Positions 1,516 to 37,196 of a stretch of 37,196 nt of DNA are shown here, piece by piece. Location: sequence record PZ445539.1, one strand, 5' to 3'. The notes beneath the pieces are model-generated. The model saw only the letters and a program-made list of their open reading frames with translations, did not search any database and was not told the DNA's origin. The DNA comes from a phage. Each line of letters begins with the position of its first letter. Position 1 is the stretch's first letter. The position numbers and the translations under genes were made by a program.

Positions 1516-2789
1516 TGGAAGAACCTAAATACACGATTGACCTGCGAACCAATAACGGCTGGTGGGCAAGGCTGCAGTCCTGGTTTGTAGGCGGGCGTTT
1601 AGTCACCCCAAATCAGGGCTCACAGACGGGGCCTGTTTCGGCCCACGGACACCTGGGCGATTCATCCATTAATGATGAACGGATACTGCAAATTTCGACG
1701 GTTTGGCGCTGCGTGAGCCTGATTTCAACGCTCACGGCATGCTTACCGCTTGATGTCTTCGAAACCGACCAGAATGACAACCGCAAAAAAGTGGGTTTGA
1801 GCAATCCGCTGGCGCGACTGCTGCGCTACTCACCGAATCAGTACATGACCGCCCAGGAATTCAGGGAGGCCATGACGATGCAGCTCTGTTTCTACGGTAA
1901 CGCGTATGCACTGGTGGACCGCAACAGCGCGGGTGACGTGATCAGCCTTCTCCCGCTTCAGTCTGCCAATATGGATGTGAAACTCGTCGGAAAAAAAGTG
2001 GTTTATCGCTATCAGCGCGACAGCGAATACGCCGACTTTTCGCAGAGAGAGATTTTTCACCTTAAAGGCTTCGGATTCACCGGGCTGGTCGGCCTGTCCC
2101 CCATTGCTTTTGCCTGTAAATCGGCAGGTGTGGCAGTTGCGATGGAGGACCAGCAGCGAGATTTCTTTGCCAATGGCGCCAAGTCTCCGCAAATCCTCTC
2201 AACCGGAGAAAAAGTGCTAACTGAACAGCAGCGCTCGCAGGTCGAAGAGAACTTCAAAGAGATCGCCGGCGGTCCGGTTAAAAAACGCCTCTGGATTCTG
2301 GAAGCGGGCTTTTCCACATCGGCAATTGGCGTAACGCCGCAGGATGCCGAAATGATGGCGTCCCGAAAATTTCAGGTTAGTGAACTGGCGCGATTCTTTG
2401 GCGTACCGCCTCACCTTGTCGGCGATGTCGAGAAGTCAACGAGCTGGGGATCGGGTATCGAGCAGCAGAATCTCGGCTTCCTGCAGTACACGCTGCAGCC
2501 CTATATCTCCCGGTGGGAAAACAGCATTCAGCGGTGGCTTATTCCTGCTAAGGATGTTGGACGTATTCATGCTGAGCACAATCTCGACGGCCTGCTGAGG
2601 GGCGATTCGGCATCCCGCGCAGCCTTTATGAAGGCAATGGGAGAGGCAGGATTACGCACCATCAATGAAATGCGCCGAACGGACAACCTCCCGCCATTGC
2701 CGGGTGGCGATGTGGCAATGCGCCAGTCGCAATACGTGCCGATCACCGACTTAGGAACCAACAAAGAGCCCCGTAATAACGGGGCTTAA
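1512..2789 (+). CDS. portal protein (HK97-family-like)
   Basis: 425-aa ORF directly after TerL with overlapping start (GTG 1512 or ATG 1515); size and position typical of a portal gene. Confidence 0.85.
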   Translation: MMEEPKYTIDLRTNNGWWARLQSWFVGGRLVTPNQGSQTGPVSAHGHLGDSSINDERILQISTVWRCVSLISTLTACLPLDVFETDQNDNRKKVGLSNPLARLLRYSPNQYMTAQEFREAMTMQLCFYGNAYALVDRNSAGDVISLLPLQSANMDVKLVGKKVVYRYQRDSEYADFSQREIFHLKGFGFTGLVGLSPIAFACKSAGVAVAMEDQQRDFFANGAKSPQILSTGEKVLTEQQRSQVEENFKEIAGGPVKKRLWILEAGFSTSAIGVTPQDAEMMASRKFQVSELARFFGVPPHLVGDVEKSTSWGSGIEQQNLGFLQYTLQPYISRWENSIQRWLIPAKDVGRIHAEHNLDGLLRGDSASRAAFMKAMGEAGLRTINEMRRTDNLPPLPGGDVAMRQSQYVPITDLGTNKEPRNNGA

Positions 2790-2794
2790 TTTTT

Positions 2795-3484
2795 ATGGGG
2801 GCCGTAATGCCTGAAATCGTAAAAACGCTGTCTTTCGACGAGACAGAAATCAAATTCACCGGTGACGGGAAACAGGGGATTTTTGAAGGCTACGCCTCTG
2901 TTTTTAATAACACCGATTCCGATGGCGACATCATTCTGCCAGGGGCGTTTAAAAATGCACTGGCGAACCAGACCCGCAAAGTGGCGATGTTCTTCAACCA
3001 CAAGACGTGGGAGCTACCGGTTGGTAAATGGGACAGCCTGGCCGAAGACGAGAAAGGTCTGTATGTGCGCGGTCAGCTGACCCCAGGACACAGCGGCGCC
3101 ACCGACCTGAAAGCGGCAATGCAGCACGGTACCGTTGAGGGGATGTCGGTTGGCTTTTCTGTTGCGAAAGACGATTACAGCATCACTACCACCGGCCGCA
3201 TTTTTAAGAATATTCAGGCCCTGCGTGAAATCAGCGTTTGTACCTTCCCGGCCAACGAACAGGCTGGCATTGCAGCCATGAAAAGTGTCGATGGCATTGA
3301 AACGATCCGTGATGTGGAGAACTGGCTGAGGGATTCAGTCGGGCTCACCAAATCACAGGCAGTTGGGCTAATAGCCCGGTTTAAGTCAGCGATTCGGAGC
3401 GAGTCCGAGGGCGACGGAAACGAAGCACAAATCAACGCTCTGCTTCAGAGCATCAAATCTTTCCCTTCTAATTTAGGTAATTAA
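2795..3484 (+). CDS. prohead maturation protease (HK97 gp4-like)
   Basis: 229-aa ORF between portal and major capsid genes; alternative start at 2807 has a better GGGGG ribosome-binding site. Confidence 0.8.
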   Translation: MGAVMPEIVKTLSFDETEIKFTGDGKQGIFEGYASVFNNTDSDGDIILPGAFKNALANQTRKVAMFFNHKTWELPVGKWDSLAEDEKGLYVRGQLTPGHSGATDLKAAMQHGTVEGMSVGFSVAKDDYSITTTGRIFKNIQALREISVCTFPANEQAGIAAMKSVDGIETIRDVENWLRDSVGLTKSQAVGLIARFKSAIRSESEGDGNEAQINALLQSIKSFPSNLGN

Positions 3485-4644: not shown

Positions 4645-4650
4645 TGGAGG

Positions 4651-4672
4651 GGGCGGGGTGACCCGCCCTTTT
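4651..4672 (+). terminator. intrinsic terminator-like hairpin after the capsid gene
   Basis: GGGCGGG-gtga-CCCGCCC stem-loop followed by TTTT. Confidence 0.55.
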
Positions 4673-4677
4673 AACGT

Positions 4678-5004: not shown

Positions 5005-5342
5005 TGGAACCTGGACGATTCAGGCACAGGGTAAAAATTCTCACCTTCACGACTTCGCGCGATCCATCTGGTCAGCCGGTTGAATCGTGGAGTGGTGGCA
5101 ACCCGGTCCCGGCTGAGGTGAAGGGGATCAGTGGCAGAGAGCAGATGTCTGGTGGCGCGGAAACGGCGCAGGCAACCATTCGCGTCTGGATGCGCTTCAG
5201 GGCTGAGCTGAACGCCTCTTCTCGTCTGGAAGTGCTTAGCGGCCCGTATAAAGGTCAGGTGCTAAATATCATCGGTCCTCCTGTAGCAAATGCGACCGGC
5301 AGTCGTCTGGAAATTCTTTGCAAAACGGGAGCTGAAAAATGA
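5004..5342 (+). CDS. head closure / head-tail adaptor protein
   Basis: 112-aa ORF with start overlapping the previous stop; position in head-tail joining block. Confidence 0.55.
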   Translation: MEPGRFRHRVKILTFTTSRDPSGQPVESWSGGNPVPAEVKGISGREQMSGGAETAQATIRVWMRFRAELNASSRLEVLSGPYKGQVLNIIGPPVANATGSRLEILCKTGAEK

Positions 5343-6148: not shown

Positions 6149-6173
6149 AGACCGCCCCGGCGGTCTTTTTTTA
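6149..6173 (+). terminator. terminator-like hairpin upstream of major tail gene
   Basis: AGACCGC-cccg-GCGGTCT stem-loop followed by TTTTTTT. Confidence 0.55.
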
Positions 6174-6677: not shown

Positions 6678-6710
6678 ATCCCTTCGATCATGTAACAAGA
6701 GAAAAATGAA

Positions 6711-7112
6711 ATGCCGCAAAAAACATCACAGAATTCATTACGCAACGTGGCGCTTACAGCATCGAAAGCCTATCGCACCAAAGAAGGTATCACGGTCCCT
6801 GAATGGGATGGCGCAAAGGTAACGCTGCGTGAACCCTCTGGCGATGCCTGGGTGAAATTCCGGGAGATCGTTAATCCCCAGCTCGCCGAGGGCGAAGAGG
6901 CACCGACGCTGACGGAGGCGGAAAAGTTTCTGCGTAACAAAGAGGCTGATGTGGTTCTGTTTATTGACGTTCTGCTGGATGAAAACGGCGAGCGAGTATT
7001 CAGCGATGAGGATCAGGAGCAGGTATCTAAAATCTATGGTCCTGTGCACTCCCGCCTGCTGGCTCAGGCCCTCAACCTCGGAATGAGCCAGGAAGAAGCG
7101 GGAAAGCCGTAA
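6711..7112 (+). CDS. tail assembly chaperone (lambda gpG-like)
   Basis: 133-aa acidic ORF ending GCG GGA AAG CCG TAA; contains slippery heptamer G GGA AAG at 7100-7106. Confidence 0.75.
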   Translation: MPQKTSQNSLRNVALTASKAYRTKEGITVPEWDGAKVTLREPSGDAWVKFREIVNPQLAEGEEAPTLTEAEKFLRNKEADVVLFIDVLLDENGERVFSDEDQEQVSKIYGPVHSRLLAQALNLGMSQEEAGKP

Positions 7113-7400: not shown

Positions 7401-7422
7401 GCCCGCGGCTGCGGGCTTTTTT
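7401..7422 (+). terminator. terminator-like hairpin before tape measure gene
   Basis: GCCCGC-ggct-GCGGGC followed by TTTTTT. Confidence 0.55.
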
Positions 7423-7433
7423 ATGGGTGAAAT

Positions 7434-10400
7434 ATGGCAACGCTGCGCGAGCTAATCATCAAAATTTCGGCGAACTCATCTTCTTTCCAGTCTGAGATCG
7501 CCAGAGCGTCCCGCATGGGAACCGATTACTACCGCACTATGGAACAGGGCGGGAAAAAAGCTGCAGCGGCCACGCGTGAAACTCAGCGCTCTTTGGCTGA
7601 CCTGAACTCTCAGCTTGCAACAGTACGTTCCTCTGCTGCCGGGCTTGCCGGTGCGTGGGCTGGTGCATTTGCCACGCATCAGCTGATTCAGTTTGCCGAC
7701 ACGTGGAACCAGTTGAATGGGCGTCTTCGCCTTGCGTCCTCTTCCAGTGAGGATTACGTGCAATCCCAGCGTGTACTGATGGAGATTAGCCAGCGGACCG
7801 GAACATCCCTTGAGGCAAACAGCAACCTGTACAGCAGAATTGCGCAGTCCCTGCGTGATGCCGGTTACGCTTCTGCTGACGTCGCAAAAGTTACGGAAAC
7901 CGTAGCAACCTCACTGAAGCTGTCTGGCGCCAGTACCGAAGAGGCGAGTTCTGTTATCACCCAGCTTAGCCAGGCACTTGGCTCAGGCGTTTTGCGAGGC
8001 GAAGAATTTAACTCCATCATGGAGAACGGCGGCCGCCTGGCGAAACTGCTGGCTGATGGGCTGGGTACCAGTGTTGGTGGCCTGCGAAATATGGCCAACA
8101 ACGGCGAGCTGACGACCAACAAGATCGTCCCGCTGCTGACCAACGTTGAGATCCTCCGTAAAGAATTCGACACCCTTCCTGCTTCCATCAGCGGATCTGC
8201 ACAGAAAGTGCAAAACGCCTTCCTTGCATGGGTTGGCGGGGCGAACGATGCGGTCGGCGCATCCTCAACGCTTTCCGGCGTGCTGGATGGTCTTGCGAAT
8301 AACATCGATGATTTGGCAAATACAGCCGGTATTCTGGTTGGTGTTGGCCTCGCCCGTTATTTCGGCAACATGGTTGGCAGCGTCGCTCAGTCAACCCGGG
8401 CAGTGCTCGCTAATACGGCCGCCGAGGTCGCACTGGCTCAGGCTCAGGTTCGTGGCGCTCAGGTTAGCGTTGCTGCTGGTCGCCAGGCTGTTTATCGCGC
8501 TCAACAGGCGCGCGCAGCGGCGACGAGTATTGAGGCTCAGATTGTCGCTGAGCGTAATCTTGCTGCTGCTCAGGCATCACTGAATACTGCGCTTGCTGGC
8601 AGGACTTCGGCCGTTAATAACCTCACCAATACAGCCTCGGTGATGTCCCGCCTGGGTAGTGGCGTTCTTGGCATTCTCGGTGGCTGGCCTGGAGTGATTA
8701 TCGGTGCTGGCGCTGCGATGTATGGCCTTTATCAACATACCCAGCAGGTGCACCGTGAGGCGGTAGGTTTTGCCAACAACCTTGACGAGATCAACACCAA
8801 GCTCCAGCAGATGTCGGTGCTTGGCCTGCGTTCGACCGCGGCTGATGCCCGTACATCTTTGCAGGCGCAAAAACAGGACCTGGCCGACCTCGACTCTCAG
8901 ATCGCGAAGGTGAAAGACAGCCTTAAGGCGGTTGACCAAATCCAGCAGGACTATAACCGCCATCCGACGCTGACCCTGATCAATACTTTCATGGACCAGG
9001 CCGACATCACGGCCAAAAATATCGAGCTGACCGATAAGCTGAACCAGCTGGAGTACCAGCGCGAACAGGCAGCCTCAAAAGTCGAGCAAACGCAGAAGCT
9101 GGTAAACCAGGCCAGCGATCTGGCCACGCAAAAGGCTATCGAACAGGCTGGCGCCGTCTCTATCCTGAAAGGTGCGTATGACCTGCTTAACCGCTCAATG
9201 TCAGCGACCGCTGGCGCCAAGCCGCCGCAATATGCCGGGCCCGTCGTTTCACTGGCGAACGCAACGCCTCAACAGCAAACCGCACTGGAGCGCTCACGCC
9301 GAGATAACGAGCTGGCCAGCCTAAGCGGTTTAGAGAAACTTCATCAGCAGCACGTGTATGAAGCAGAAGACCTGAAGCTGACGGGAGCACTTTACACCCA
9401 GTACATTTACAACAAGGATCAGGCAGCCAAAAAAGATGCAGCGGCTGCGGAGGCAAAAAAAACCTCTACCGCCGCCTCGAAAGCACAGAGTAAAGCCGAG
9501 CGTGAAGCGGCCAGCACCGCCGAACAGTATTCCCGGAAAATGGCCGATCTGAGTGTGGCTATCGACGTGCAACGCGTCAGGGCGACGGAAGGTGAAAAAG
9601 CCTCGGAGCTTTACGCTGCATCGCACCAGGCAGGCACTAAATGGACCGACGAGCAGCGCAAGGCGATCCAGGCATCATCAGCAGAGCTGGCAAAATGGAC
9701 GCAAAAAGCCGACGAGAACGTGCGCAAGCAGCGCGAACAAGCTGATGCCCTGAAGGATTTAACTGAAGCGGCCCGAAAGTTCAGGGATGAGGCGACGCTG
9801 ACAACCGAAACCGCAGGCATGAGTGATCGCCAGCGCAGCCGGTTCGACGAGACGCAACAGATCGACCGTGTTTTTGCTAAAGCAGGTGGCGACAAAAGCA
9901 CCCAGGCTGTGATAGCTCGAAGCGAAGCCCTTGATGCTCTGGATAAGAAATACAAGGCTATTGCAGCAGCTGAAGCGGATTGGATGTCCGGTGTATCACG
10001 CGGCTATGCCAACTGGTTTGATGAAATCAGTAACGTATCCGGAACGGTTTCTGACGGGGTGAAAACCACACTCGACAGCGCGTTTGGTAACGTCACCTCA
10101 ATGCTCGAAGGCAATAAAGTTAGCTGGAAATCGTGGGGTATTTCTGTCCTGCAGATCATTGAAAAAGTGGCGCTGCAGATGGCGGTGGTCAGCGCGATGG
10201 GTGGTGCCTCTTCCGGTTCTGGCATTTTTGGCTCACTCATCGGCAGTGTGGGCAGTTTCTTCGGGGGCGGGGCGGGAGCATCAGCCAGCACCGGTACAGC
10301 GGTTTCCAGTTACGGCTCGAGCTTCCAGTTTAATGCCAAAGGCGGCGTTTATGACTCTCCATCCCTGAGCGCTTTCAGTAATGGGATCGTCAGAAACCCA

Positions 10401-11818: not shown

Positions 11819-12529
11819 ATGCGTCAGAAAACCATCGATGCGATTATGGCGCATGCTGCAGCTGAATATCCTCGCGAGTGTTGCGGCGTGGTAGCGCAGA
11901 AAAGCCGTGTTGAACGTTATTTCCCGTGCCGGAATCTTGCCGCGGCGCCGGAGGACAATTTTGTCCTTTGCCCCGAAGACTATACAACTGCTGAGGACTG
12001 GGGAACGGTGATCGCCATCGTTCACAGTCATCCTGACGCCACGACACAACCGAGCGAATTGGATAAAGCGCAATGCGATGCAACGCTTTTGCCGTGGCAC
12101 ATCGTGAGCTGGCCTGAGGGGGATTTACGCACCATCCAGCCGCGTGGGGAGCTGCCGCTGCTGGAGCGTCCGTTTGTGCTTGGACACTTCGACTGCTGGG
12201 GGCTGGTAATGAGCTATTTCCGGCAAACGCATGGTATCGAGCTCCACGATTACCGGGTGGATTATCCCTGGTGGGAAAACGACTATCCGGACAACTTCTA
12301 TCAGGATTGCTGGTATGAGTGCGGATTCCGTGAATTCGACGGGCCACCGAAACCCGGCGATATGGTGATTATGCAGGTCCAGGCCGATAAGTGGAATCAC
12401 GCGGGAATTCTGCTGGAGGGAAATATGCTGCTGCACCACCTGTACGGACATCTGAGCCAGCGCGTGCCGTATGGTGGCTACTGGCAGGAAAGGACGATGA
12501 AGGTTCTACGATATAAGGACCTGTGCTAA
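11819..12529 (+). CDS. tail tip assembly protein (lambda gpK-like; JAMM/MPN plus NlpC/P60-type domains)
   Basis: 236-aa ORF with JAMM-like motif AIVHSHPD and C-terminal Cys/His region. Confidence 0.75.
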   Translation: MRQKTIDAIMAHAAAEYPRECCGVVAQKSRVERYFPCRNLAAAPEDNFVLCPEDYTTAEDWGTVIAIVHSHPDATTQPSELDKAQCDATLLPWHIVSWPEGDLRTIQPRGELPLLERPFVLGHFDCWGLVMSYFRQTHGIELHDYRVDYPWWENDYPDNFYQDCWYECGFREFDGPPKPGDMVIMQVQADKWNHAGILLEGNMLLHHLYGHLSQRVPYGGYWQERTMKVLRYKDLC

Positions 12530-12560
12530 CCTTTTGTAAAACAAAAAAGGGGTTAGGGAT

Positions 12561-12908
12561 ATGAGGAAATTTCTTTCGATATTGGCGTGTAGCCTGATTA
12601 TTGTTGGTTGCTCACCTTCGGAAAAGGATTTTATTGACATGGGGGAATCCTTAGTTAAAGACACCCTCAAAGATCCTGATAGCGCTAAGTTTGAATCATT
12701 TTTCCGTGATTTCGGAGAAAATACTGGATATGTTTGCGGTTATGTGAATGCTAAAAATTCATACGGCGCATATACGGGTAAAAAACCATATTATGTGCGG
12801 ATTGAGGTCAAAGATGGAAAGGTCAATGATCATGGACCAATCATCATTATTAATGACCAAGACCAAAAGAAAATTGATTCATATGAGTCAATCTGTCAAA
12901 AGGACTGA
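12561..12908 (+). CDS. lipoprotein, unknown function (moron)
   Basis: Signal peptide with lipobox LIIVGC; strong ribosome-binding site; AT-rich codon usage unlike flanking tail genes. Confidence 0.7.
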   Translation: MRKFLSILACSLIIVGCSPSEKDFIDMGESLVKDTLKDPDSAKFESFFRDFGENTGYVCGYVNAKNSYGAYTGKKPYYVRIEVKDGKVNDHGPIIIINDQDQKKIDSYESICQKD

Positions 12909-12914
12909 TGTGCG

Positions 12915-13250
12915 ATGAAAAAGATTATCCTCCCAATTTTTATCTTTCTGCTGATGGGGTGTTCTGTTTCCTCACTGGAAGAACAAAAACCTATTCTATC
13001 AGAGCATTCAACAAAAACTGTTGAGGAAGTTAACCGTTGCCTTGCTCCTAAATGGGTGGAACTACGATCTTCAAGCTCCAGCATACCCACTGAGTCAGGA
13101 TACAAAATCACAGCATCTGACGATATATTCGGTGCTCTTTCAGTAGTGAATATCGATAAATCAGCGACAGGCGGAAGCGATATAAAGGTTTATGCCGTCG
13201 CGAAAGGTTGGAACGACCACTGGGCTACGGCCGCCAGATCATGTCTTTGA
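12915..13250 (+). CDS. lipoprotein, unknown function (moron)
   Basis: Signal peptide with lipobox LLMGC; AT-rich; followed by terminator. Confidence 0.7.
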   Translation: MKKIILPIFIFLLMGCSVSSLEEQKPILSEHSTKTVEEVNRCLAPKWVELRSSSSSIPTESGYKITASDDIFGALSVVNIDKSATGGSDIKVYAVAKGWNDHWATAARSCL

Positions 13251-13269
13251 AAAAACATAAATAATCCAA

Positions 13270-13291
13270 GCCACCTTCGGGTGGCTTTTTT
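13270..13291 (+). terminator. intrinsic terminator after lipoprotein moron
   Basis: GCCACC-ttcg-GGTGGC hairpin followed by TTTTTT. Confidence 0.65.
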
Positions 13292-13306
13292 GTATGGAGA
13301 ATAAAA

Positions 13307-13906
13307 ATGCCAGAGGTCATGACCCGAATTGAACTCGGCGGTGTTTTGGGTAAAACCTACGGAAAGGTTCACCATCGATTAATACGCACAACCGCTGAGG
13401 CCATCAACTCTCTTACGAAAACTATAAACGGGCTGGAGAAATTCCTGATCACCAGCAAAGCAAGGGGCCTGACTTACGCCGTTTTTAAAGATAAAAAAAA
13501 TATCGGAAAGGATGATTTTGGTTTTCCGGTAACCGGTGAGGTTATTCGAATTGTCCCGGTAGTAATCGGAAGTAAAAAAGCCGGTGTATTACAGACAATT
13601 CTTGGCGCCGTGCTCGTCGTTGTTGGGGTAGCCATTGGCTATTTCTCAGGTGGCACTCTATCAGCGGTGGGGTACGGGGCTGCGAAATTCGGTGCAGCCA
13701 TGATGCTGGGAGGTGTTGTCCAAATGCTATCTCCTCAACCTGCAGGTCTGGCCAGCAAACAAAGCGCTGACAACCGTGCATCATACGCATTCGGTGGTGT
13801 AACAAACACCGCGGCGCAAGGCTACCCGGTACCGCTCCTTTATGGCCGTCGGCGAATAGGCGGAGCGATTATTTCTGCCGGAATTTATGTCGAAGATCAG
13901 CAGTAG
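13307..13906 (+). CDS. tail assembly protein (lambda gpI-like)
   Basis: 199-aa ORF with hydrophobic Gly-rich central segment; position between K-like and J-like genes. Confidence 0.75.
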   Translation: MPEVMTRIELGGVLGKTYGKVHHRLIRTTAEAINSLTKTINGLEKFLITSKARGLTYAVFKDKKNIGKDDFGFPVTGEVIRIVPVVIGSKKAGVLQTILGAVLVVVGVAIGYFSGGTLSAVGYGAAKFGAAMMLGGVVQMLSPQPAGLASKQSADNRASYAFGGVTNTAAQGYPVPLLYGRRRIGGAIISAGIYVEDQQ

Positions 13907-13925
13907 ATAACTAACCTTTTTTCTG

Positions 13926-13948
13926 GCCACCTTCGGGTGGCTTTTTTT
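13926..13948 (+). terminator. second copy of the same hairpin, before J-like gene
   Basis: Identical GCCACC-ttcg-GGTGGC stem-loop followed by TTTTTTT. Confidence 0.55.
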
Positions 13949-13959
13949 ATGGGCGCAAT

Positions 13960-16900
13960 ATGGCTACAGATAAAGTGTTAAAGGGCCGCAAGGGCGGCAG
14001 CTCCAGTTCACGAACTCCTACCGAACAGCCTGATGATCTGCAATCTGTAGCGAAGGCAAAAATCCTCGTTGCGCTTGGCGAAGGGGAGTTTGCAGGTCAG
14101 CTAACCGGCAAAGATATCTACCTGGACGGAACAGCCCTGGAGAATGCTGACGGCTCCCAAAACTTCAGCGGCGTAACGTGGGAGTTTCGCGCGGGAACGC
14201 AGGCGCAAAAATATATTCAGGGTATTCCCGGTACCGAAAACGAAATCAGCGTAGGAACTGAGGTATCAAGCGCTACAGCATGGACGCGCACCTTTACCAA
14301 TACGCAGCTTTCAGCAGTTCGCCTACGTCTGAAATGGCCCTCGCTTTTCAAACAGGAGGACGACGGCGATCTGGTGGGTTACTCGGTCAATTATGCGATT
14401 GACCTGCAGACGGACGGCGGCACATGGCAGACGGTACTCAATACCAGCGTGACCGGCAAAACGACGTCTGGTTATGAGCGCAGCCACCGTATTGATTTAC
14501 CGCAGGCTGGCAGCACCTGGACAATACGCCTGCGTAAGATTACCTCTGACGCCAACAGCGCGAAGATCGGCGACACGATGACGCTGCAGAGCTTCACCGA
14601 GGTGATTGACGCCAAACTGCGCTACCCGAACACCGCGCTGCTCTACATCGAATTTGACTCAAGCCAGTTCAACGGCTCTATTCCTCAAATTTCATGCGAA
14701 CCGCGCGGCCGCGTTATCCGCGTTCCAGATACCTACGACCCTGAAACTCGCACTTATAGCGGTACATGGACCGGTGCGTTTAAGTGGGCATGGACGGATA
14801 ACCCTGCGTGGATTTTTTACGACCTGGTTGTTTCTGACCGGTTCGGCCTCGGGCACCGTTTGACCGCTGCAAATATTGATAAATGGACGCTTTATCAGGT
14901 TGCTCAGTATTGTGATCAGATGGTACCAGACGGCAAAGGGGGCAACGGTACCGAACCACGTTATACCTGCAACGTGTACATTCAGGACCGGAACGACGCC
15001 TACACAGTCCTGCGTGATTTTGCCGCTATCTTCCGTGGCATGACCTACTGGGGCGGGGATCAGATTGTGGCCCTGGCTGACATGCCGCGCGATGTTGATT
15101 ACAGCTACACGCGCGCTAACGTTGTTGGCGGTCGCTTCACCTATTCGAGCAGCACCACGAAAAGCCGCTACACCACAGCGCTGGTTTCATGGTCAGACCC
15201 TGGTAACGCTTATGCCGACGCGATGGAGCCGGTTTTTGAGCAGGCACTGGTGGCGCGATACGGCTTCAATCAGCTGGAAATGACAGCCATCGGCTGCACC
15301 AGGCAGTCAGAAGCGAACCGAAAGGGGCGCTGGGGTATTCTCACCAACAACAAGGATCGCGTTGTTTCGTTTGATGTCGGGCTGGACGGCAACATTCCGC
15401 AGCCGGGCTACATCATCGCCGTGGCAGACGAGCTGCTATCCGGAAAGGTTATGGGCGGCCGCATCAGCGCCGTTAACGGTCGCGTTATCAAACTTGACCG
15501 CGTGGCAGATGCAGCAGCGGGTGATCGCCTTATTCTCAACTTACCATCCGGAGTGTCGCAGAGCAGGACCATTCAGGCCGTAAACGGGGAATCAGTCACA
15601 GTAACCACGGCATACAGTGAGACGCCACAGGCCGAAGCTGTTTGGGTGGTTGAATCTGACGAGCTCTATGCGCAGCAGTATCGTGTTATCAGCGTTTCCG
15701 AAAAGGATGATGGCACGTTCTCGATTACTGGCGCATGGCACGACCCGGATAAATATGCCCGTATCGATACCGGAGCCATTATCGACCAGCGGCCGGTGAG
15801 CGTGATCCCGCCTGGTAACCAGTCGCCGCCTGCGAACATCGTGATCAGCTCGTTTTCCGTGGTTCAGCAGAATATCAGCGTCGAAACGATGCGCGTGAGC
15901 TGGGACCAGGCGCAGAACGCTATCGCCTATGAAGCGCAGTGGCGCCGCAACGACGGGAACTGGGTTAACGTGCCGCGCAGCTCCACAACGTCATTCGACG
16001 TCCCCGGAATTTATGCCGGGCGCTACCTGGTGCGCGTGCGCGCAATCAATGCCGCAGAAATTTCATCCGGATGGGGCTATTCAGAAGAGAAAACGCTGAC
16101 GGGTAAAGTGGGCAATCCACCGAAGCCGGTTGGCTTCATCGCTTCTGAAAATGTGGTATTCGGTATCGAACTAAATTGGGGATTCCCGGCGAATACCGAC
16201 GACACGCTGAAGACGGAAATTCAGTACAGCCTGACCGGTACCGAGGACGATGCGATGCTGCTGGCCGATGTGCCTTACCCTCAGCGTAAATATCAGCAGA
16301 TGGGCCTTAAGGCTGGGCAGATTTTCTGGTACCGCGCGCAGCTGGTGGACCGCAGCGGCAACGAATCCGGGTACACGGAATGGGTGCGAGGACAGGCCAG
16401 CATCGATGTTTCCGATATCACAGATGTGATCCTGGAGGAAATTAAAGACTCCGATACGTTCAAAGACCTGATCGAGAACGCGGTGGACAGCAATGAAAAA
16501 ATTGCTGGCATGGCTGACGACATCAAGCAGGCCAACGATGAACTTGAGCTGCAGGCGCAGGAAATCGCAAAAAACGCTCAGGACATCGGGGAGGTTCAGA
16601 CCAGCGTTAATGAGCTTTCGAGCACCGTTGGTGATGTGTCGTCTTCTCTCTCAGAGCTTGAGCAGACCGTTGCGACGGCTGATACCGCGCTGGGCCAGCG
16701 AATCGACAGCATTAGCGTGTCTATGGACGGCATGACAGGCGGGGTGAAGAACTCAGCCATTGCCATTATCCAAAACGGGCTGGCGCAGGTGGCCACGCGT
16801 AAATCGTTGTCGGCTTCGGTCGCCGGTAACAGTGCGCAGCTGGATCGTATTGATGAGGTAATCGTTAACGAGAAGGAGGCAACGGCGCGCTCTCTGCTGA

Positions 16901-17496
16901 GCCTGCAGACGGACGTCAACGGCAACAAGGCATCCATCAACAGCCTGAATCAGACGTTCTCCGACTATCAGCAGGCTACGGCCACGCAGATAAACGGCAT
17001 TACGGCGACCGTTAACGGGCATACCTCAGCCATCACCACTAACGCTCAGGCGATAGCCAACGTTAATGGCGACCTCAGCGCGATGTACAACATCAAGGTT
17101 GGTGTCTCCAGCAACGGGCAGTATTACGCCGCGGGGATGGGTATCGGCGTGGAGAATACGCCATCCGGCATGCAGTCGCAGGTTATCTTCCTGGCTGACC
17201 GCTTCGCCGTCACCACCGCAGCCGGAAATAGCGTGGCTTTGCCGTTTGTGATCCAGAACGGGCAGACATTCATCCGGGCCAGCTTCATCCAGGACGGCAC
17301 CATTGAGAACGCCAAAATCGGAAACTATATCCAGTCGAATAACTATGTGGCTGGTTCTGCAGGCTGGAAGCTTGATAAGGGAGGGACGTTCGAAATTAAC
17401 GGCGTGGCCGGGGGCGGGAGGATGCTGATATCCAGCACTCTCATTCGCATCTACGACAGCAACAACGTGCTGCGCGTCAGAATGGGGTTATGGTAA
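13960..17496 (+). CDS. central tail fibre / host specificity protein (lambda gpJ-like)
   Basis: 1178-aa ORF at the canonical position after I. Confidence 0.9.
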   Translation: MATDKVLKGRKGGSSSSRTPTEQPDDLQSVAKAKILVALGEGEFAGQLTGKDIYLDGTALENADGSQNFSGVTWEFRAGTQAQKYIQGIPGTENEISVGTEVSSATAWTRTFTNTQLSAVRLRLKWPSLFKQEDDGDLVGYSVNYAIDLQTDGGTWQTVLNTSVTGKTTSGYERSHRIDLPQAGSTWTIRLRKITSDANSAKIGDTMTLQSFTEVIDAKLRYPNTALLYIEFDSSQFNGSIPQISCEPRGRVIRVPDTYDPETRTYSGTWTGAFKWAWTDNPAWIFYDLVVSDRFGLGHRLTAANIDKWTLYQVAQYCDQMVPDGKGGNGTEPRYTCNVYIQDRNDAYTVLRDFAAIFRGMTYWGGDQIVALADMPRDVDYSYTRANVVGGRFTYSSSTTKSRYTTALVSWSDPGNAYADAMEPVFEQALVARYGFNQLEMTAIGCTRQSEANRKGRWGILTNNKDRVVSFDVGLDGNIPQPGYIIAVADELLSGKVMGGRISAVNGRVIKLDRVADAAAGDRLILNLPSGVSQSRTIQAVNGESVTVTTAYSETPQAEAVWVVESDELYAQQYRVISVSEKDDGTFSITGAWHDPDKYARIDTGAIIDQRPVSVIPPGNQSPPANIVISSFSVVQQNISVETMRVSWDQAQNAIAYEAQWRRNDGNWVNVPRSSTTSFDVPGIYAGRYLVRVRAINAAEISSGWGYSEEKTLTGKVGNPPKPVGFIASENVVFGIELNWGFPANTDDTLKTEIQYSLTGTEDDAMLLADVPYPQRKYQQMGLKAGQIFWYRAQLVDRSGNESGYTEWVRGQASIDVSDITDVILEEIKDSDTFKDLIENAVDSNEKIAGMADDIKQANDELELQAQEIAKNAQDIGEVQTSVNELSSTVGDVSSSLSELEQTVATADTALGQRIDSISVSMDGMTGGVKNSAIAIIQNGLAQVATRKSLSASVAGNSAQLDRIDEVIVNEKEATARSLLSLQTDVNGNKASINSLNQTFSDYQQATATQINGITATVNGHTSAITTNAQAIANVNGDLSAMYNIKVGVSSNGQYYAAGMGIGVENTPSGMQSQVIFLADRFAVTTAAGNSVALPFVIQNGQTFIRASFIQDGTIENAKIGNYIQSNNYVAGSAGWKLDKGGTFEINGVAGGGRMLISSTLIRIYDSNNVLRVRMGLW

Positions 17497-20278: not shown

Positions 20279-20308
20279 GGCAGTCACGTAATTAATGACT
20301 GCCTTTTT
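20279..20308 (+). terminator. intrinsic terminator after tail fibre gene
   Basis: GGCAGTCA-cgtaattaa-TGACTGCC hairpin followed by TTTTT. Confidence 0.6.
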
Positions 20309-20309
20309 G

Positions 20310-20576
20310 TCACGCACCAACCTGGCGAACAGTCGGGAACTCAGAAACCAACCACATATCAGATTCTTCAAACATTTCCTCCAGCATACGGTTCAGTTTT
20401 TCCCGATCGCTTTTGCTGGCATCGCTATTCAGGCCGTTTTCCTGCATCGGCTTCACTTTCACCTCGGCATCAGGGAAAATCTGGTGCACTCGCTTCGTCA
20501 GCTCTGCCAGGATAATTTCTCTGGCGCCTGCCAAACCATCAACATTCCGCTTGTCATAAACCAGTTCAACGAACAT
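20310..20576 (-). CDS. DinI-like protein
   Basis: 88-aa acidic protein whose sequence pattern resembles DinI; GGAGG ribosome-binding site; two LexA boxes immediately upstream. Confidence 0.75.
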   Translation of the reverse strand: MFVELVYDKRNVDGLAGAREIILAELTKRVHQIFPDAEVKVKPMQENGLNSDASKSDREKLNRMLEEMFEESDMWLVSEFPTVRQVGA

Positions 20577-20595
20577 ATAAGCCTCCGGAAAACCA

Positions 20596-20635
20596 CTGTG
20601 TTTGTATACAGTATTTTTACTGTAAAAATAAACAG
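20596..20635. promoter_or_regulatory. two tandem LexA (SOS) boxes in the DinI-like promoter
   Basis: CTGT-N8-ACAG at 20596-20611 (aCTGTgtttgtatACAGta) and 20620-20635 (taCTGTaaaaataaACAGta). Confidence 0.7.
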
Positions 20636-20730
20636 TATCAAGGTGAGCGGAGCGCGAAAAGTGGAAGGGTTTTTGTTACCCTTAGTTACAAATAGAAAAA
20701 CCCCGGACCGTAAGATCTGGGGTTCTTTTA

Positions 20731-20757
20731 AAGTGCACGTGCATTTCACGTGCATAT
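20731..20757. promoter_or_regulatory. candidate integrase arm-type binding sites (left arm of attP)
   Basis: Repeated GTGCA(C/T) motif: AAGTGCACGTGCATTTCACGTGCATAT. Confidence 0.35.
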
Positions 20758-20847
20758 TTTTGTCTTTTCTCGGTCTGCGCACTGTCTGGTCAGTGTCCGT
20801 AAGTGGCTGTTTTTATTGCCGCTGTCCGGTTGCAGTCCTATCAAAAG

Positions 20848-20882
20848 TGGTGGAGCTGGCGGGAGTTGAACCCGTGTCCGAA
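20848..20882 (-). mobile_element. ssrA: attP core: 3'-terminal fragment of ssrA (tmRNA) carried by the phage
   Basis: Reverse complement reads GGACACGGGTTCAACTCCCGCCAGCTCCACCA, matching from memory the T-arm/acceptor 3' end of enterobacterial tmRNA; identity stops abruptly upstream; integrase gene adjacent. Confidence 0.7.
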
Positions 20883-20932
20883 TAATGATTAACCTATTGA
20901 ATATTAATGATTTCTGTTTTTTGAAATGCCTC

Positions 20933-29609: not shown

Positions 29610-29921
29610 ATGGATCGCCTAATTAGAGAAATGTCGTACCTCTTTACCAAGCAGCATTTTATGGAGCTTCAGGAAACGGCCAAAAACATCGCAATCAGCC
29701 ATAGTGACTTTCCTGAGTGTTTCAGTCTTATTGCTGAGGCCATCGCTGAATTTGTTGAAGACACTCCTGATGATGAGTGGCGAGAGTATGAAAAAATCCT
29801 CATGCACTACGTTGCTATGCGTACTCTGACGCTGTGGGGTAACGGCGATAAAGTTACTGATGTCCAGTGGGCACACCCTGGCTGGTTTGGCACTGCTGAG
29901 AAGGGAGAAACCATTCAATGA
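29610..29921 (+). CDS. hypothetical protein
   Basis: 104 aa; translationally coupled between primase-helicase and Q-like gene. Confidence 0.45.
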   Translation: MDRLIREMSYLFTKQHFMELQETAKNIAISHSDFPECFSLIAEAIAEFVEDTPDDEWREYEKILMHYVAMRTLTLWGNGDKVTDVQWAHPGWFGTAEKGETIQ

Positions 29922-30700
29922 AACTGGAAGCATCACTCAAACATTTTAGTCCTCAGGGAATGCACATCAGCGATGACGTGAAGGGAACTTCTCCGGACCG
30001 CCTTACAGGAACAGATGTAATGGCGGCGATTGGCACCACCAGCAGCCGTGCGCGCTTCGGCCTGGCGGCGTTCTTCGGTAAAGCGGGAATCAGCAAAACG
30101 GATGAACAGCTCGCAGTTCAGGCGCTGGCGCGATATGCGATGGATGTCGCACCGAAGAATGTTCGCAAAGCAGCTGGTGGGCAGTTCGGATGGTGTATGC
30201 AGATGCTGGCACAATTTGCCTTTGCTGATTACTCCCGTTCGGCGGCTACCAGCGTGACATGTCACAGTTGCAGCGGTACCGGGTTTATCTCCGGGAATGA
30301 GGATGTGGTTAAACATCCTGGTATTTTCGACGCCGACGGTGCTGAAGTGGTGGCCCCGAAGATTAAAAATGAGCTGGTGAATAGGGTTTGCGGAACATGC
30401 GGAGGAAAGAAAGTGATCCTTGCCCGGTGCAGGTGTGGCGGTAAAGGCGAAGTGTTGGACCGCAAAGCGACTAAAGACCGCGGCGCACCGGTTTTCAAAA
30501 CGTGTGAACGTTGCTCTGGTAATGGCTTCTCTGCTATCTCCTCGGCGACGGTACACCGTGCCATTTTGAAGCGTCTCCCGGACCTCCATCAATCCTCATG
30601 GTCACGCAACTGGAAACCCTTCTATGAAATGCTGGTGGACACTCTGCGCCAGGGGGAACGTCATGCAGCAGTGGAATTTGAGAAGGCGACAACTTATTAA
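29918..30700 (+). CDS. putative late-gene antiterminator (Q-like), Cys-rich zinc-finger protein
   Basis: Four CxxC pairs, two as CxxCxGxG (CHSCSGTG, CERCSGNG); immediately upstream of a strong promoter-terminator pair and the late/lysis genes. Confidence 0.5.
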   Translation: MKLEASLKHFSPQGMHISDDVKGTSPDRLTGTDVMAAIGTTSSRARFGLAAFFGKAGISKTDEQLAVQALARYAMDVAPKNVRKAAGGQFGWCMQMLAQFAFADYSRSAATSVTCHSCSGTGFISGNEDVVKHPGIFDADGAEVVAPKIKNELVNRVCGTCGGKKVILARCRCGGKGEVLDRKATKDRGAPVFKTCERCSGNGFSAISSATVHRAILKRLPDLHQSSWSRNWKPFYEMLVDTLRQGERHAAVEFEKATTY

Positions 30701-30741
30701 TATGATCGGAGCAAATAGCGACACTTTTTTGCACGTTAGTG

Positions 30742-30772
30742 TTGACTTTGCATAAAACTGTCCTGTATGCTT
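30742..30772 (+). promoter_or_regulatory. candidate late promoter (PR'-like)
   Basis: TTGACT at 30742-30747 with a TATGCT-like -10 element about 18 bp downstream; located between Q-like gene and terminator. Confidence 0.45.
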
Positions 30773-30807
30773 TCCATCGTGGGATATTACGCCTACACGA
30801 CATCAAA

Positions 30808-30830
30808 CCCGCCTCGGCGCGGGTTTTTTT
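30808..30830 (+). terminator. intrinsic terminator (tR'-like) just downstream of late promoter
   Basis: CCCGC-ctcggc-GCGGG hairpin followed by TTTTTTT. Confidence 0.7.
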
Positions 30831-30973
30831 GTGCCTGCAATTCTTCGCGCCACGCTCGGCGCAATTCAACCACAGAGCCTTTCAGGGGTGAGCCATAGGG
30901 AACGGTCGGTGTGACTGTCTCTGTGGGCTGATCATTCCTGAGCGCTGGCTCACCCGCTAAAAGGAAAGTCACT

Positions 30974-33950: not shown

Positions 33951-35408
33951 ATGCAGGTCACTATTAATGGTGTCCAGTATGCACCCGCCTGTGCAATTTC
34001 ATCGCGGATCGGCGTTGCCATTTCGACGCATCAGCGCTCAGACGTTTTAAAACGTGCACTCGAACAGCACATGAAGCATCTTCCCGCTGGCGCGCGAGTG
34101 GTGGTTGTAGATGATGGTTCAAAACCTGCAGCGGTAGTTCCCCACGGCGTGCAGCTGCTTCGCCATGAAACTTCACTCGGCATTGTTGCTTCGAAGAACG
34201 CCAGCCTGTCAGCCCTGATGGATGCCGGGTGCGAGCATCTTTTTCTGTGGGATGATGATGCCTGGCCCATCGCCGACAACTGGCATCTTCCCTACATCGA
34301 ATCACCCGAGCCACACCTGGCTTACCAGTTTCTCGATTTGGCTGGTCGCAATAAGCTGAATGACCTTTCGGTGCTTTACCGTGACGATCAGCATGTGGCG
34401 TACACCGGACAGCGCGGCGTGATGCTGTATTACCACCGTAGCGCCATCGAGAGGGTGGGCGGATTCGATCCGGTTTATGGTCGCGGCATGTACGAGCACA
34501 GCGACCTCGCCTTGCGCATCCATAACGCTGGACTGACTACGTGGGCTTACGCTGATGTCCTCGGTTCAGACAAGCTGATTCATTCCCTCGATGAGCATGA
34601 AGCGGTGGAGCGTTCGGTACCGAGGCCCGACCGCCAGGCGCTGGTGGAACGTAATGTTAAGATCCACAATGAACGACGTGATACCGGCTTTACCGGTTAT
34701 GTTGAATATCGGCGTCAGCGCGACGTGGTTATCACTACGTTACTGACCAGCCAGCCTGACCCTCAACGCGGTACGAAAATGATGGCCTCGCCTGACATGC
34801 TGACCAAGTGGGCGGCCTCGCTTCGGAATTGTGGGCGTATTGCGCTGGTGGATGAATTACTGACGGCCCCGGCAGATGTTGAGCTGTATCTCGTACCTGA
34901 CGTAAAGATGAATGTCTATTTCCGGCGCTGGCTGCACATCTGGCAGCACCTGCGCGATCACCCTGAATATCGTTTCGTCTGGTGTACAGATGGTACCGAT
35001 GTCGAAATGCTCCGCGCACCGTGGGAAGAAATGCAGCCCGGGAATGTTTACGTCGGTTCTGAACCGAAGACATACGCCGACACCTGGGCGAAACAGAATC
35101 ATCCTGAGCGTATCTATCAGGAATTCATTGAAGCGCACCGCGGCGATGTGATGCTTAACGCTGGTCTGCTGGGTGGCACCCGCGCTGATGTAATGGCGTT
35201 CGCTCACGGCATCATCCGTCTTTACTACCGGATCGAGAGTTATCGTTTCTGGAAGAAAGAACAGGTTGGCGCCGCGGTGGGTGACATGCTGGCGTTCGGT
35301 ATTGTCGCGCATTCATTCGCTGACAGGCTGGTCACCGGCCCTCTGGTACATACCGTTTTCAAAACTGATGGTATCGGTAAGGAGGCCGCATGGTGGAAAC
35401 ACAAGTGA
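33951..35408 (+). CDS. putative two-domain glycosyltransferase (N-terminal GT2-like GT-A fold; C-terminal second nucleotide-sugar transferase-like domain)
   Basis: N-terminus has GT2-like pattern: VAISTHQRS...VVVVDDGS...LWDDDAW (DxD)...GGFD; 485 aa; no transmembrane segments seen. Confidence 0.55.
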   Translation: MQVTINGVQYAPACAISSRIGVAISTHQRSDVLKRALEQHMKHLPAGARVVVVDDGSKPAAVVPHGVQLLRHETSLGIVASKNASLSALMDAGCEHLFLWDDDAWPIADNWHLPYIESPEPHLAYQFLDLAGRNKLNDLSVLYRDDQHVAYTGQRGVMLYYHRSAIERVGGFDPVYGRGMYEHSDLALRIHNAGLTTWAYADVLGSDKLIHSLDEHEAVERSVPRPDRQALVERNVKIHNERRDTGFTGYVEYRRQRDVVITTLLTSQPDPQRGTKMMASPDMLTKWAASLRNCGRIALVDELLTAPADVELYLVPDVKMNVYFRRWLHIWQHLRDHPEYRFVWCTDGTDVEMLRAPWEEMQPGNVYVGSEPKTYADTWAKQNHPERIYQEFIEAHRGDVMLNAGLLGGTRADVMAFAHGIIRLYYRIESYRFWKKEQVGAAVGDMLAFGIVAHSFADRLVTGPLVHTVFKTDGIGKEAAWWKHK

Positions 35409-35980
35409 AGTTTGTTGTGGTTGGCCATCACTCTCGCATAGGTCATGCGCAACGACTTGCCGCGCTGCTGGATGCTCATCTGCTTATTGATGACGGTGAC
35501 CACGGCGCGAACTGGAATCATCGCCGCGCGCTGGAGTGGGCTGCATGCCAACCCTGCAGGGTAGTGGTGTTGGAAGACGACGCGCTTCCTGTGCAGGGCT
35601 TCACCGATAAGGTAACTGAATGGCTGGTGCGCTTCCCTGAAGAGATGCTGAGCTTTTACCTCGGTACCGGCCGACCGCCGCAGTATCAGAAAGAGATTGC
35701 CGGAATGCTGGTTGAATCAGACAGAGTAAACGCTGATTACCTTGTTCTTAGCAAACTGATTCACGGCGTATGTTACAGCCCTCCTCAGGGCAGGCTGGCG
35801 CGCATGCTTAACGCATGGAATAAAACGCTGGCAGCTGATTACGCCGTTGGTGAGGCATTCGGTGGCCGGGTTATTTATCCGTGTTACTCGCTGGTGGATC
35901 ACGCTGACCTCCCGACGGTTGAGCGTCACCCTGACAACGAGCCGAGGACGGAACGCCGCCGCGCATGGAGACTGGCATGA
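35390..35980 (+). CDS. hypothetical protein, possibly GT-A-like transferase
   Basis: 196 aa; strong AGGAGG ribosome-binding site; FVVVGH...VVVLEDDA pattern reminiscent of a GT-A DxD core; weak call. Confidence 0.4.
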   Translation: MVETQVKFVVVGHHSRIGHAQRLAALLDAHLLIDDGDHGANWNHRRALEWAACQPCRVVVLEDDALPVQGFTDKVTEWLVRFPEEMLSFYLGTGRPPQYQKEIAGMLVESDRVNADYLVLSKLIHGVCYSPPQGRLARMLNAWNKTLAADYAVGEAFGGRVIYPCYSLVDHADLPTVERHPDNEPRTERRRAWRLA

Positions 35981-36318
35981 ACAAAGAGCCCCGCGTATAT
36001 GGCAGCCGATGGGATAAGGCCCGTCTGCGTTTCCTGCAGCAGCACCCACTATGTGTGATGTGCGAGCAGCAGGGGCGCATTACCCCAGCAACGGTGGTTG
36101 ACCATATTGAGCCCCACAAACTCAAAGATGCGCTTAAGTCAGGTAACGCGCTGGCCATATCGAAAGCACAGCTCCTGTTCTGGAGTAAAGAGAACTGGCA
36201 GCCACTGTGCAAAGCGCATCACGACTCAACGAAACAGAGAATGGAGAAGAGCGGCGCGGTAATAGGCTGTGATGCCAACGGCTACCCGCTCGATCCTGCG
36301 TCTCACTGGAGCACGTAA
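35977..36318 (+). CDS. HNH endonuclease (packaging-associated, HK97 gp74-like position)
   Basis: CxxC...DHIEPH...N...CKAHHD HNH motifs; immediately upstream of terS region. Confidence 0.85.
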   Translation: MNKEPRVYGSRWDKARLRFLQQHPLCVMCEQQGRITPATVVDHIEPHKLKDALKSGNALAISKAQLLFWSKENWQPLCKAHHDSTKQRMEKSGAVIGCDANGYPLDPASHWST

Positions 36319-37190: not shown

Positions 37191-37196
37191 AAGACT

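Follow-up and report, generated by a model that had tools for sequence, protein, structure and literature searches.

Juhala and co-workers, writing in 2000, are said to have introduced the moron concept together with its hallmarks (extra DNA, deviant composition, a promoter and a terminator of its own), and reportedly described putative terminators in the late operon of phage HK97. The GenBank record of HK97 (AF069529) lists a "putative terminator" at all seven positions homologous to the hairpins considered here, namely 3309, 5192, 6692, 7443, 8398, 13799 and 15107, the last two of which precede tail genes I and J and are called the pre-I and pre-J sites below. Both of these sites are also annotated as terminators in HK75, HK633 and mEp234, and the pre-I site in HK446. 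Morons carry terminators of their own, and the role assigned to these is the stopping of unmodified RNA polymerase in the prophage state (PMC3594210). RNA polymerase loaded with the antitermination protein Q processively ignores terminators, since the Q nozzle blocks hairpin formation (PMC9388147). In T4-like phages, PeSLs are known as promoter-terminator cassettes (PMC2839356, PMC4122927). Here we analysed a phage DNA of 37,196 nucleotides (PZ445539.1; this whole stretch is the window referred to below), in which an identical UUCG-loop hairpin followed by a T-run stands on each side of tail assembly gene I. At 100% identity the region matches Escherichia phage LMessi (PP925823.1), whose record has no annotated terminators, and its alignable parts are 78-89% identical to Fraca, HK446, HK106, mEp235, mEp234, HK75, HK022, HK97 and HK633, which belong to Hendrixvirinae wherever the record gives a lineage. 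LMessi is an HK97-like phage with tail genes syntenic with those of HK97, and it is called temperate because it encodes an integrase and a CI-like repressor. The local gene order is tape-measure gene, M, L, K, two extra open reading frames (ORFs), I and J. The hairpins are real but not new, as their kind and the homologous positions were already known and have been annotated in the HK97 family since 2000. We consider it probable that both copies are Rho-independent terminators within a Q-antiterminated late operon, the upstream one ending an acquired moron of two lipoprotein genes and the downstream one forming the edge of a moron slot between I and J.

The 16-nt stem-loop GCCACCTTCGGGTGGC was found at 13270-13285 and 13926-13941, both on the + strand, and these are its only two copies, just as a preliminary description of the window had noticed. 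No further copy exists elsewhere in the window even when 2 mismatches are allowed, and shuffled sequences gave a mean of 0.01 matches, with none of 100 shuffles containing two. The two copies are identical over 22 nt (hairpin and T6), and the match extends to 28 nt at one mismatch (...TTTTTTgTATGG vs ...TTTTTTtTATGG). Each stem comprises 7-8 bp, 5 of them G-C pairs, and carries a UUCG loop, the T-runs abut the stems directly, and both hairpins lie on the strand of all late genes. The pre-I hairpin is located 18 nt past the stop codon of lipoB (the second of the two extra ORFs) and 15 nt ahead of the I start codon, with GGAG, the ribosome-binding site of I, directly 3' of it, while the pre-J hairpin is located 19 nt past the I stop codon and 11 nt ahead of the J start codon. 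Stability, which the preliminary description had proposed to check by RNA folding, is not marginal: the free energy (dG) of the stem-loop alone is -12.2 and -13.1 kcal/mol, and the folds in a 46-nt context reach -15.1 and -15.5 kcal/mol (z about -3.3). A GC-rich stem-loop, an adjoining U-run and a sense-strand position 3' of a coding region, which are the features of an intrinsic terminator, are thus present at both sites, and in anatomy and stability the two match the operon-end terminators of the same genome (30805 and 25349(-)). Scanning the whole window against Rfam at gathering thresholds returned no match, so the hairpin is not a described RNA family.

The upstream copy is tied to the DNA between K and I by comparison with 80 viral contigs holding an I homologue, which were analysed along with the window. 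In 14 relatives the K stop codon overlaps the I start codon (ATGA) and there is no insert; the hairpin is found in none of these 14, so that it goes with the moron and not with the expression of I. Another 65 relatives have a K-I insert of 321-1016 nt, and in 56 of them a perfect-stem terminator lies no more than 70 nt from I, with stems that vary by insert (ACCACC, GCCACC, CCGC, CCCGC, GCAGCAU and AGCCC). The insert of LMessi is 777 nt long (12530-13306), has a GC content of 0.36-0.39 (12500-13000) vs 0.52-0.58 in the flanking K and J genes, and carries genes for two small proteins, named lipoA and lipoB here, whose signal peptide and lipobox mark them as predicted lipoproteins. Homologues of lipoB (52-100% amino acid identity) all adjoin I and are nearly all followed by a hairpin of the GCCAC type, and therefore we assign the hairpin, the U-run and GGAG to the right end of the insert, where they make up for the translational coupling between K and I that was lost. 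Extra DNA between neighbouring genes, deviant GC content and a downstream terminator of its own make this insert a moron. Searches of lipoA and lipoB against Pfam, NCBIfam and PADLOC gave no matches, and among PHROGs only families of unknown function were hit; the two are candidate prophage-expressed envelope proteins, possibly acting in superinfection exclusion. At the other end of the insert, an imperfect hairpin (CUAACCUUUU...AAGGGGUUAG; 12526-12556) extends across the K stop codon and the lipoA Shine-Dalgarno sequence, and it folds weakly better than shuffled sequences (z -1.7).

The downstream copy is a nearly constant neighbour of J. By a strict test it abuts J in 76 of 78 relatives, the exceptions being a one-mismatch stem and an extraction artefact, and it is present in 67 loci with an empty I-J gap (46-59 nt) as well as in 11 loci with I-J inserts (317-879 nt), which always lie between the I stop codon and the hairpin. 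A pre-J hairpin also occurs in lambda and in prophages of Enterobacter, Kluyvera, Klebsiella, Kosakonia, Erwinia, Yokenella and Trabulsiella. In Morganella prophages (L233, L235 and L237-L239 in our numbering of loci) the I-J gap is about 30 nt and holds no such hairpin. These same prophages have a terminator followed by TTTTTTAATGGGTGAAATATG, or a close variant of it, before I, and this string nearly matches the ribosome-binding string before the LMessi tape-measure gene (TTTTTTATGGGTGAAATATG). Across 43 distinct pre-J sequences 93% of the stem cells are paired, loops vary freely, and G-C/A-U exchange with G.U intermediates is seen at two positions. In lambda (NC_001416, 15445-15504; L210:6446-6505) the I-J gap contains the hairpin AACCGCC-UGCG-GGCGGUU and an interrupted T-run, TTTTGTCATTT. 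Downstream of the LMessi hairpin, the conserved string TTTTTTTATGGGCGCAATATGGC (13949-13981) holds an out-of-frame ATG, from which a short ORF (MGAIW...) overlaps the J start. The first five codons of this ORF are conserved in nearly all relatives and its length is not. As its frame also differs from that of J, we set aside the ATG in TTTATGGGCGCAATATG as an upstream ORF or alternative J start, and the conservation of TTTTTTTATGGGCGCAATATGGC is probably just that of a ribosome-binding region.

Sequence searches outside the window, which the preliminary description had suggested for other phage and host genomes, explain why the two copies can be the same without being linked. The exact 22-mer is present in at least 120 viral contigs, and at least 89 of these have no K, I, J or lipoprotein homologue, range in GC content from 35 to 67% and carry the 22-mer between unrelated flanks. 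Near-matches are held by 5,426 of 5,426 complete E. coli genomes, and the exact 16-mer lies 3' of the E. coli core gene ytfP. The sequence is close to an optimal terminator and in very wide use: its GC stem is capped by a C(UUCG)G tetraloop. When 78 related loci were scored for the exact 16-mer, 11 had it at both sites, 9 at pre-I only, 27 at pre-J only and 31 at neither; independence predicts 9.8 loci with both, so there is no sign of concerted evolution. Many relatives also have different loops at the two sites, and we therefore rejected gene conversion or concerted evolution of the copies. The perfect identity is without special meaning: each site carries its commonest allele, and the agreement is a coincidence. 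The suggestion that the hairpin is a small repeated element was not borne out, given that there are just two copies, that their similarity ends at 22-28 nt, and that the 22-mer has unrelated flanks elsewhere, a copy at ytfP and a 16-mer core uncorrelated between the two sites. A mobile element of the REP or MITE kind was rejected on the same counts and for want of an Rfam match. Across the family the pre-I and pre-J units have similar consensus stems, and in phages of the HK97 type the resemblance continues through the ribosome-binding site, at about 84% identity over 37 nt; both units may plausibly go back to an old shared ancestor.

Morons with such a unit occur in other slots as well. The HK97 moron between I and J (gp22/gp23) aligns from 10 nt past the I stop codon to the J start codon, including hairpin, T-run and ribosome-binding site, and is 89.8% identical over 695 nt to two IMG/VR contigs (L043:11555-12247 and L092:6165-6858). 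In these contigs it sits between the tape-measure gene (H) and M of a distant lambda-like tail, with M about 43-46% identical at the protein level. In a further contig, L116, the gap between M and L contains a related right end that has the exact hairpin. The H-M junction of LMessi is tight and has no hairpin. In L043 the HK97-type moron directly follows another insert with its own terminator, giving a tandem. In these alignments the terminator and the ribosome-binding site of the downstream gene travel with the moron. Given this mobility and the result at the K-I junction, the simplest explanation of the lone hairpins that precede J and the tape-measure gene is that each is the right end of an earlier moron and was retained; the lone pre-J terminator is most likely a remnant of this kind.

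A mechanism may be proposed on these comparisons. A horizontally acquired two-lipoprotein insert would have split an ancestral, translationally coupled K/I junction, and its right end would have supplied the terminator, the U-run and a new Shine-Dalgarno sequence for I. The pre-J copy would be a conserved terminator and ribosome-binding unit that closes the I-J moron slot on the right. HK97 and HK022 have a moron just upstream of this unit, whereas LMessi has an empty slot with a lone terminator. In the lysogen, the hairpins would stop unmodified RNA polymerase that started at moron or stray promoters, so that the tail genes would stay silent. After induction, polymerase loaded with Q would read through the hairpins, which would then not limit tail gene expression; as LMessi encodes a Q-like protein, late transcription should read through all of these terminators. 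Once transcribed, the hairpins may secondarily shield the upstream mRNA from 3' exonucleases. We infer that the terminators function as insulators in the prophage state.

Several points weigh against this interpretation. In the literature searched, no relevant mapping of transcripts or their 3' ends turned up for the late operons of HK97-like phages, and termination itself is what we infer. Standard and relaxed scans of 12300-12570, upstream of the lipoprotein genes, found no sigma-70 consensus, although such scans are blind to weak or non-consensus promoters, and autonomous expression of the lipoprotein genes from the prophage, the circumstance in which a pre-I terminator would be useful, is thus presumptive. 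The HK97-type moron in L043 begins about 34 nt past the terminator ahead of it, so that a promoter would have little space there. As for the downstream copy, its persistence with compensatory changes in many phages where no moron adjoins it suggests a role beyond ending a moron transcript; the covariation score was reached in 0 of 500 shuffles, a control that ignores the relatedness of the sequences. The lone pre-J terminator may also be an ancestral feature of the phage backbone instead of a moron remnant.

Terminators of this strength are not confined to the surroundings of I. We defined a stringent terminator as a perfect stem of at least 6 bp with dG of -9 kcal/mol or lower and T5 or longer, and found 8 such sites in the window, compared with 0.35 +/- 0.54 expected from 100 dinucleotide shuffles (maximum 2). 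A looser definition showed no enrichment (23 found vs 23.0 expected), so the strong hairpin class alone stands out from chance. Five of the 8 occupy gaps between genes of the tail region and have the sense orientation (6149, 6655, 7401, 13268 and 13925), and the other three lie where real terminators are expected (30805, 25349(-) and 20733). The pattern of hairpin and T-run described earlier for the major tail, tape-measure, I and J genes was thereby confirmed, as was the context TTTTTTATGGG..AATATGGC, which is common to the region upstream of the tape-measure gene (7417-7439) and that upstream of J (13942-13965). The HK97 terminator corresponding to the tape-measure site comes after the gp15 moron, and this slot is empty in LMessi. 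Table 1 lists these sites together with two weaker-tailed hairpins and the genes discussed.

Table 1. Positions of terminators, tail genes and late regulatory features in the window.
Feature	Position	Strand	Basis
Hairpin at portal/protease junction, followed by AATTTTT (weaker tail)	2766..2794	+	Homologue of HK97 terminator 3309-3335
Strong hairpin after major capsid gene (-23 kcal/mol in context), followed by TTTT (weaker tail)	4647..4674	+	Homologue of HK97 terminator 5192-5213
Terminator before major tail gene	6149..6172	+	Homologue of HK97 terminator 6692-6719
Terminator directly after major tail gene, UUCG loop	6655..6677	+	Homologue of HK97 terminator 7443-7462
Terminator before tape-measure gene, GCCCGC-GGCU-GCGGGC and T6, then ATGGGTGAAATATG	7401..7422	+	Homologue of HK97 terminator 8398-8422
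Tail gene K (minor tail protein)	11819..12529	+	PHROG 30
lipoA, first gene of K-I moron, predicted lipoprotein of 115 aa, signal peptide end IVGC	12561..12908	+	PHROG 2320 (function-unknown)
lipoB, second gene of K-I moron, predicted lipoprotein of 111 aa, signal peptide end LMGC	12915..13250	+	PHROG 914 (function-unknown)
Pre-I intrinsic terminator, AAGCCACC-UUCG-GGUGGCUU and T6 (13286-13291)	13268..13291	+	Fold, T-run, position
Tail assembly gene I, identical hairpin on each side	13307..13906	+	PHROG 32
Pre-J intrinsic terminator, GGCCACC-UUCG-GGUGGCU and T7 (13942-13948)	13925..13948	+	Fold, T-run, position
Gene J, central tail fibre / host-specificity	13960..17496	+	PHROG 31
Terminator near late-operon end, inside 3' end of ORF 20295-20885	20733		Stringent scan
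Terminator after CI-like repressor gene	25349	-	Stringent scan
Q-like antitermination protein gene	29918..30700	+	PHROG 127, E 3e-101
Promoter-like site (30742-30771), then strong terminator (30805-30826) and T-run	30742..30832	+	pR'/tR' layout as in lambdoid late operons
The same terminator (tR' position), after promoter-like site 3' of Q-like gene	30805	+	Stringent scan

The region 29918-30832 has the classic pR'/tR' layout, from which a short constitutive transcript of no more than 60 nt is predicted; a further promoter-like site follows the Q-like gene at 30678-30706. HNH genes beside the terminase genes are typical of HK97-like packaging. In LMessi, an HNH endonuclease gene and two glycosyl/glucosyltransferase-like genes (PHROG 1579 and 854) lie at 33951-36318, between the lysis genes and the small terminase gene, and the transferases may be accessory genes for surface modification. 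Position 1 of the window is the start codon of the large terminase gene and position 37196 the stop codon of the small one, so the window corresponds to the 37,205-bp LMessi record after rotation and reverse complementation.

In the preliminary description the hairpins were taken for partial terminators or RNA-stability elements that set tail protein stoichiometry. Their terminator type has held up, on anatomy, stability and the annotations in HK97, HK75, HK633, mEp234 and HK446, but a stoichiometric role of the two copies around I has not, because the pre-I copy is absent without the insert and Q is encoded. The more general idea, that the hairpins act in lytic growth as partial terminators or as 3'-end stabilisers of mRNA and so tune tail protein amounts, in the way of T-phi behind the T7 major capsid gene, seems to us unlikely, even if it would account for hairpins bracketing the two most abundant virion genes (about 4647; 6149 and 6655), for every hairpin adjoining the next ribosome-binding site, and for the compensatory changes that maintain the pre-J hairpin in moron-less phages. 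It has to contend with antitermination of late transcription by Q, whose polymerase complex blocks hairpin formation (PMC9388147), and with the relatives free of a K-I insert, where K and I are translationally coupled and the pre-I hairpin is missing in every case, so that it is not needed for I levels. Morganella relatives do without the pre-J hairpin, and I and J are both low-copy tail-tip proteins, leaving no obvious stoichiometry step between them. As 3' stabilisers of processed late mRNA, the hairpins near the major capsid and major tail genes are the more plausible candidates. The compensatory changes bear on a quite different idea as well, that the lone pre-J hairpin is a functionless scar, held in place by a J ribosome-binding site that cannot be deleted, and that the identity of the copies is pure coincidence. 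The generic nature of the exact sequence, its independent occurrence at the two sites and the Morganella phages that lack a pre-J hairpin would all agree with this, but a neutral scar should decay, and a stem 93% paired across 43 sequences, with two compensatory positions, G.U intermediates and free loops, makes it very improbable.

We also considered the hairpin as an agent of recombination. If the hairpin-terminator and ribosome-binding unit were a PeSL-like cassette for capture, exchange and loss of morons, with the copies made identical by duplication or gene conversion, then morons should end at it, and in several slots they do end exactly at hairpin, T-run and ATGG. A single moron with the same hairpin is seen in three slots (I-J, H-M and M-L), the empty pre-J and pre-tape-measure slots retain the unit, and the 84% similarity of HK97-type pre-I and pre-J units includes the part downstream of the T-run. 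The boundary within I falls elsewhere. Against relatives with near-identical K and J and a divergent I, nucleotide identity rises from 50-75% to 96-100% at about 13700-13760, so that the C-terminal part of I appears to be co-inherited with J, and the hairpin as recombination joint of an exchangeable I cassette was rejected. In the comparisons with L205, L199 and L161, the 5' two-thirds of I show the lower range and the 3' third of I and the 5' end of J the higher. Thus right ends of morons coincide with the hairpin and the breakpoint of the I module does not. No promoter-like hexamer pair was found at or after either hairpin, where the next start codon follows within 11-15 nt, and so neither site is a terminator and promoter composite of the PeSL type. 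Considering also that both sites carry the exact 16-mer in about as many loci as independence predicts (11 vs 9.8), that a generic 22-mer commonly recurs by chance, and that 22-28 nt of homology is marginal for recombination, we regard such a cassette as improbable. A tentative suggestion, somewhat less doubtful than a cassette of this kind, is that hairpin, U-run and Shine-Dalgarno sequence form a portable right end of morons, an adaptor of terminator plus replacement ribosome-binding site, which after loss of its cargo could persist as a lone but selectively maintained terminator, as ahead of J and of the tape-measure gene, and offer a preferred landing pad to a later moron. Such an adaptor would allow a foreign gene to be inserted between translationally coupled essential genes without polar damage, and the identical copies around I would be two such adaptors.

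Current understanding is unchanged by these findings, since the sequence is a generic terminator and the sites are already annotated in the HK97 family. They add comparative detail on how morons are built, with terminator and ribosome-binding site moving along and empty slots keeping a structurally conserved terminator. A possible use lies in annotating accessory-gene slots of lambdoid prophages and in choosing payload insertion sites in engineered phages.

T-phi of phage T7, after the major capsid gene, is a leaky terminator on T7 RNA polymerase and lowers downstream expression. The LMessi hairpins are likewise intrinsic terminators inside an operon with the next gene close behind, but here read-through is expected from a Q-modified host polymerase. 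The PeSLs of T4-like phages resemble the LMessi units as short stem-loops that border variable genes and, at least for the right ends of morons here, coincide with the end points of insertions and deletions. Each PeSL, however, joins an early promoter to its terminator, and there are many copies, whereas LMessi has few slots, no promoter part was found at its hairpins, and the one mosaic breakpoint tested is away from them. With lambda, LMessi shares the canonical order of Q-like gene, promoter-like site and strong terminator as in Q/pR'/tR', and the I-J hairpin of lambda is positionally homologous to the HK97-like pre-J terminator, although its T-run is interrupted and it is not annotated in the RefSeq record. 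The K-I insert is like lambdoid morons such as HK97 gene 15 (PMC3594210) in being extra DNA of deviant GC content between normally adjacent genes, with small envelope products and a factor-independent terminator at its downstream end, and differs from them in that no recognisable promoter was found. A close likeness exists to HK97, HK022, HK75, HK633, HK446 and mEp234, which have the same seven junctions with the same tie to moron slots; the pre-J sequence of HK022, GCCACCTTCGGGTGGCTTTTTTTATGGGCGCAATATGGCT, is near-identical to that of LMessi. In HK97-type phages the pre-I hairpin is ACCACC-UACG-GGUGGU and comes after a different moron of the gp20 type, whereas in LMessi it follows the lipoprotein moron and has the GCCACC form, which is why the two copies of this phage happen to be identical.

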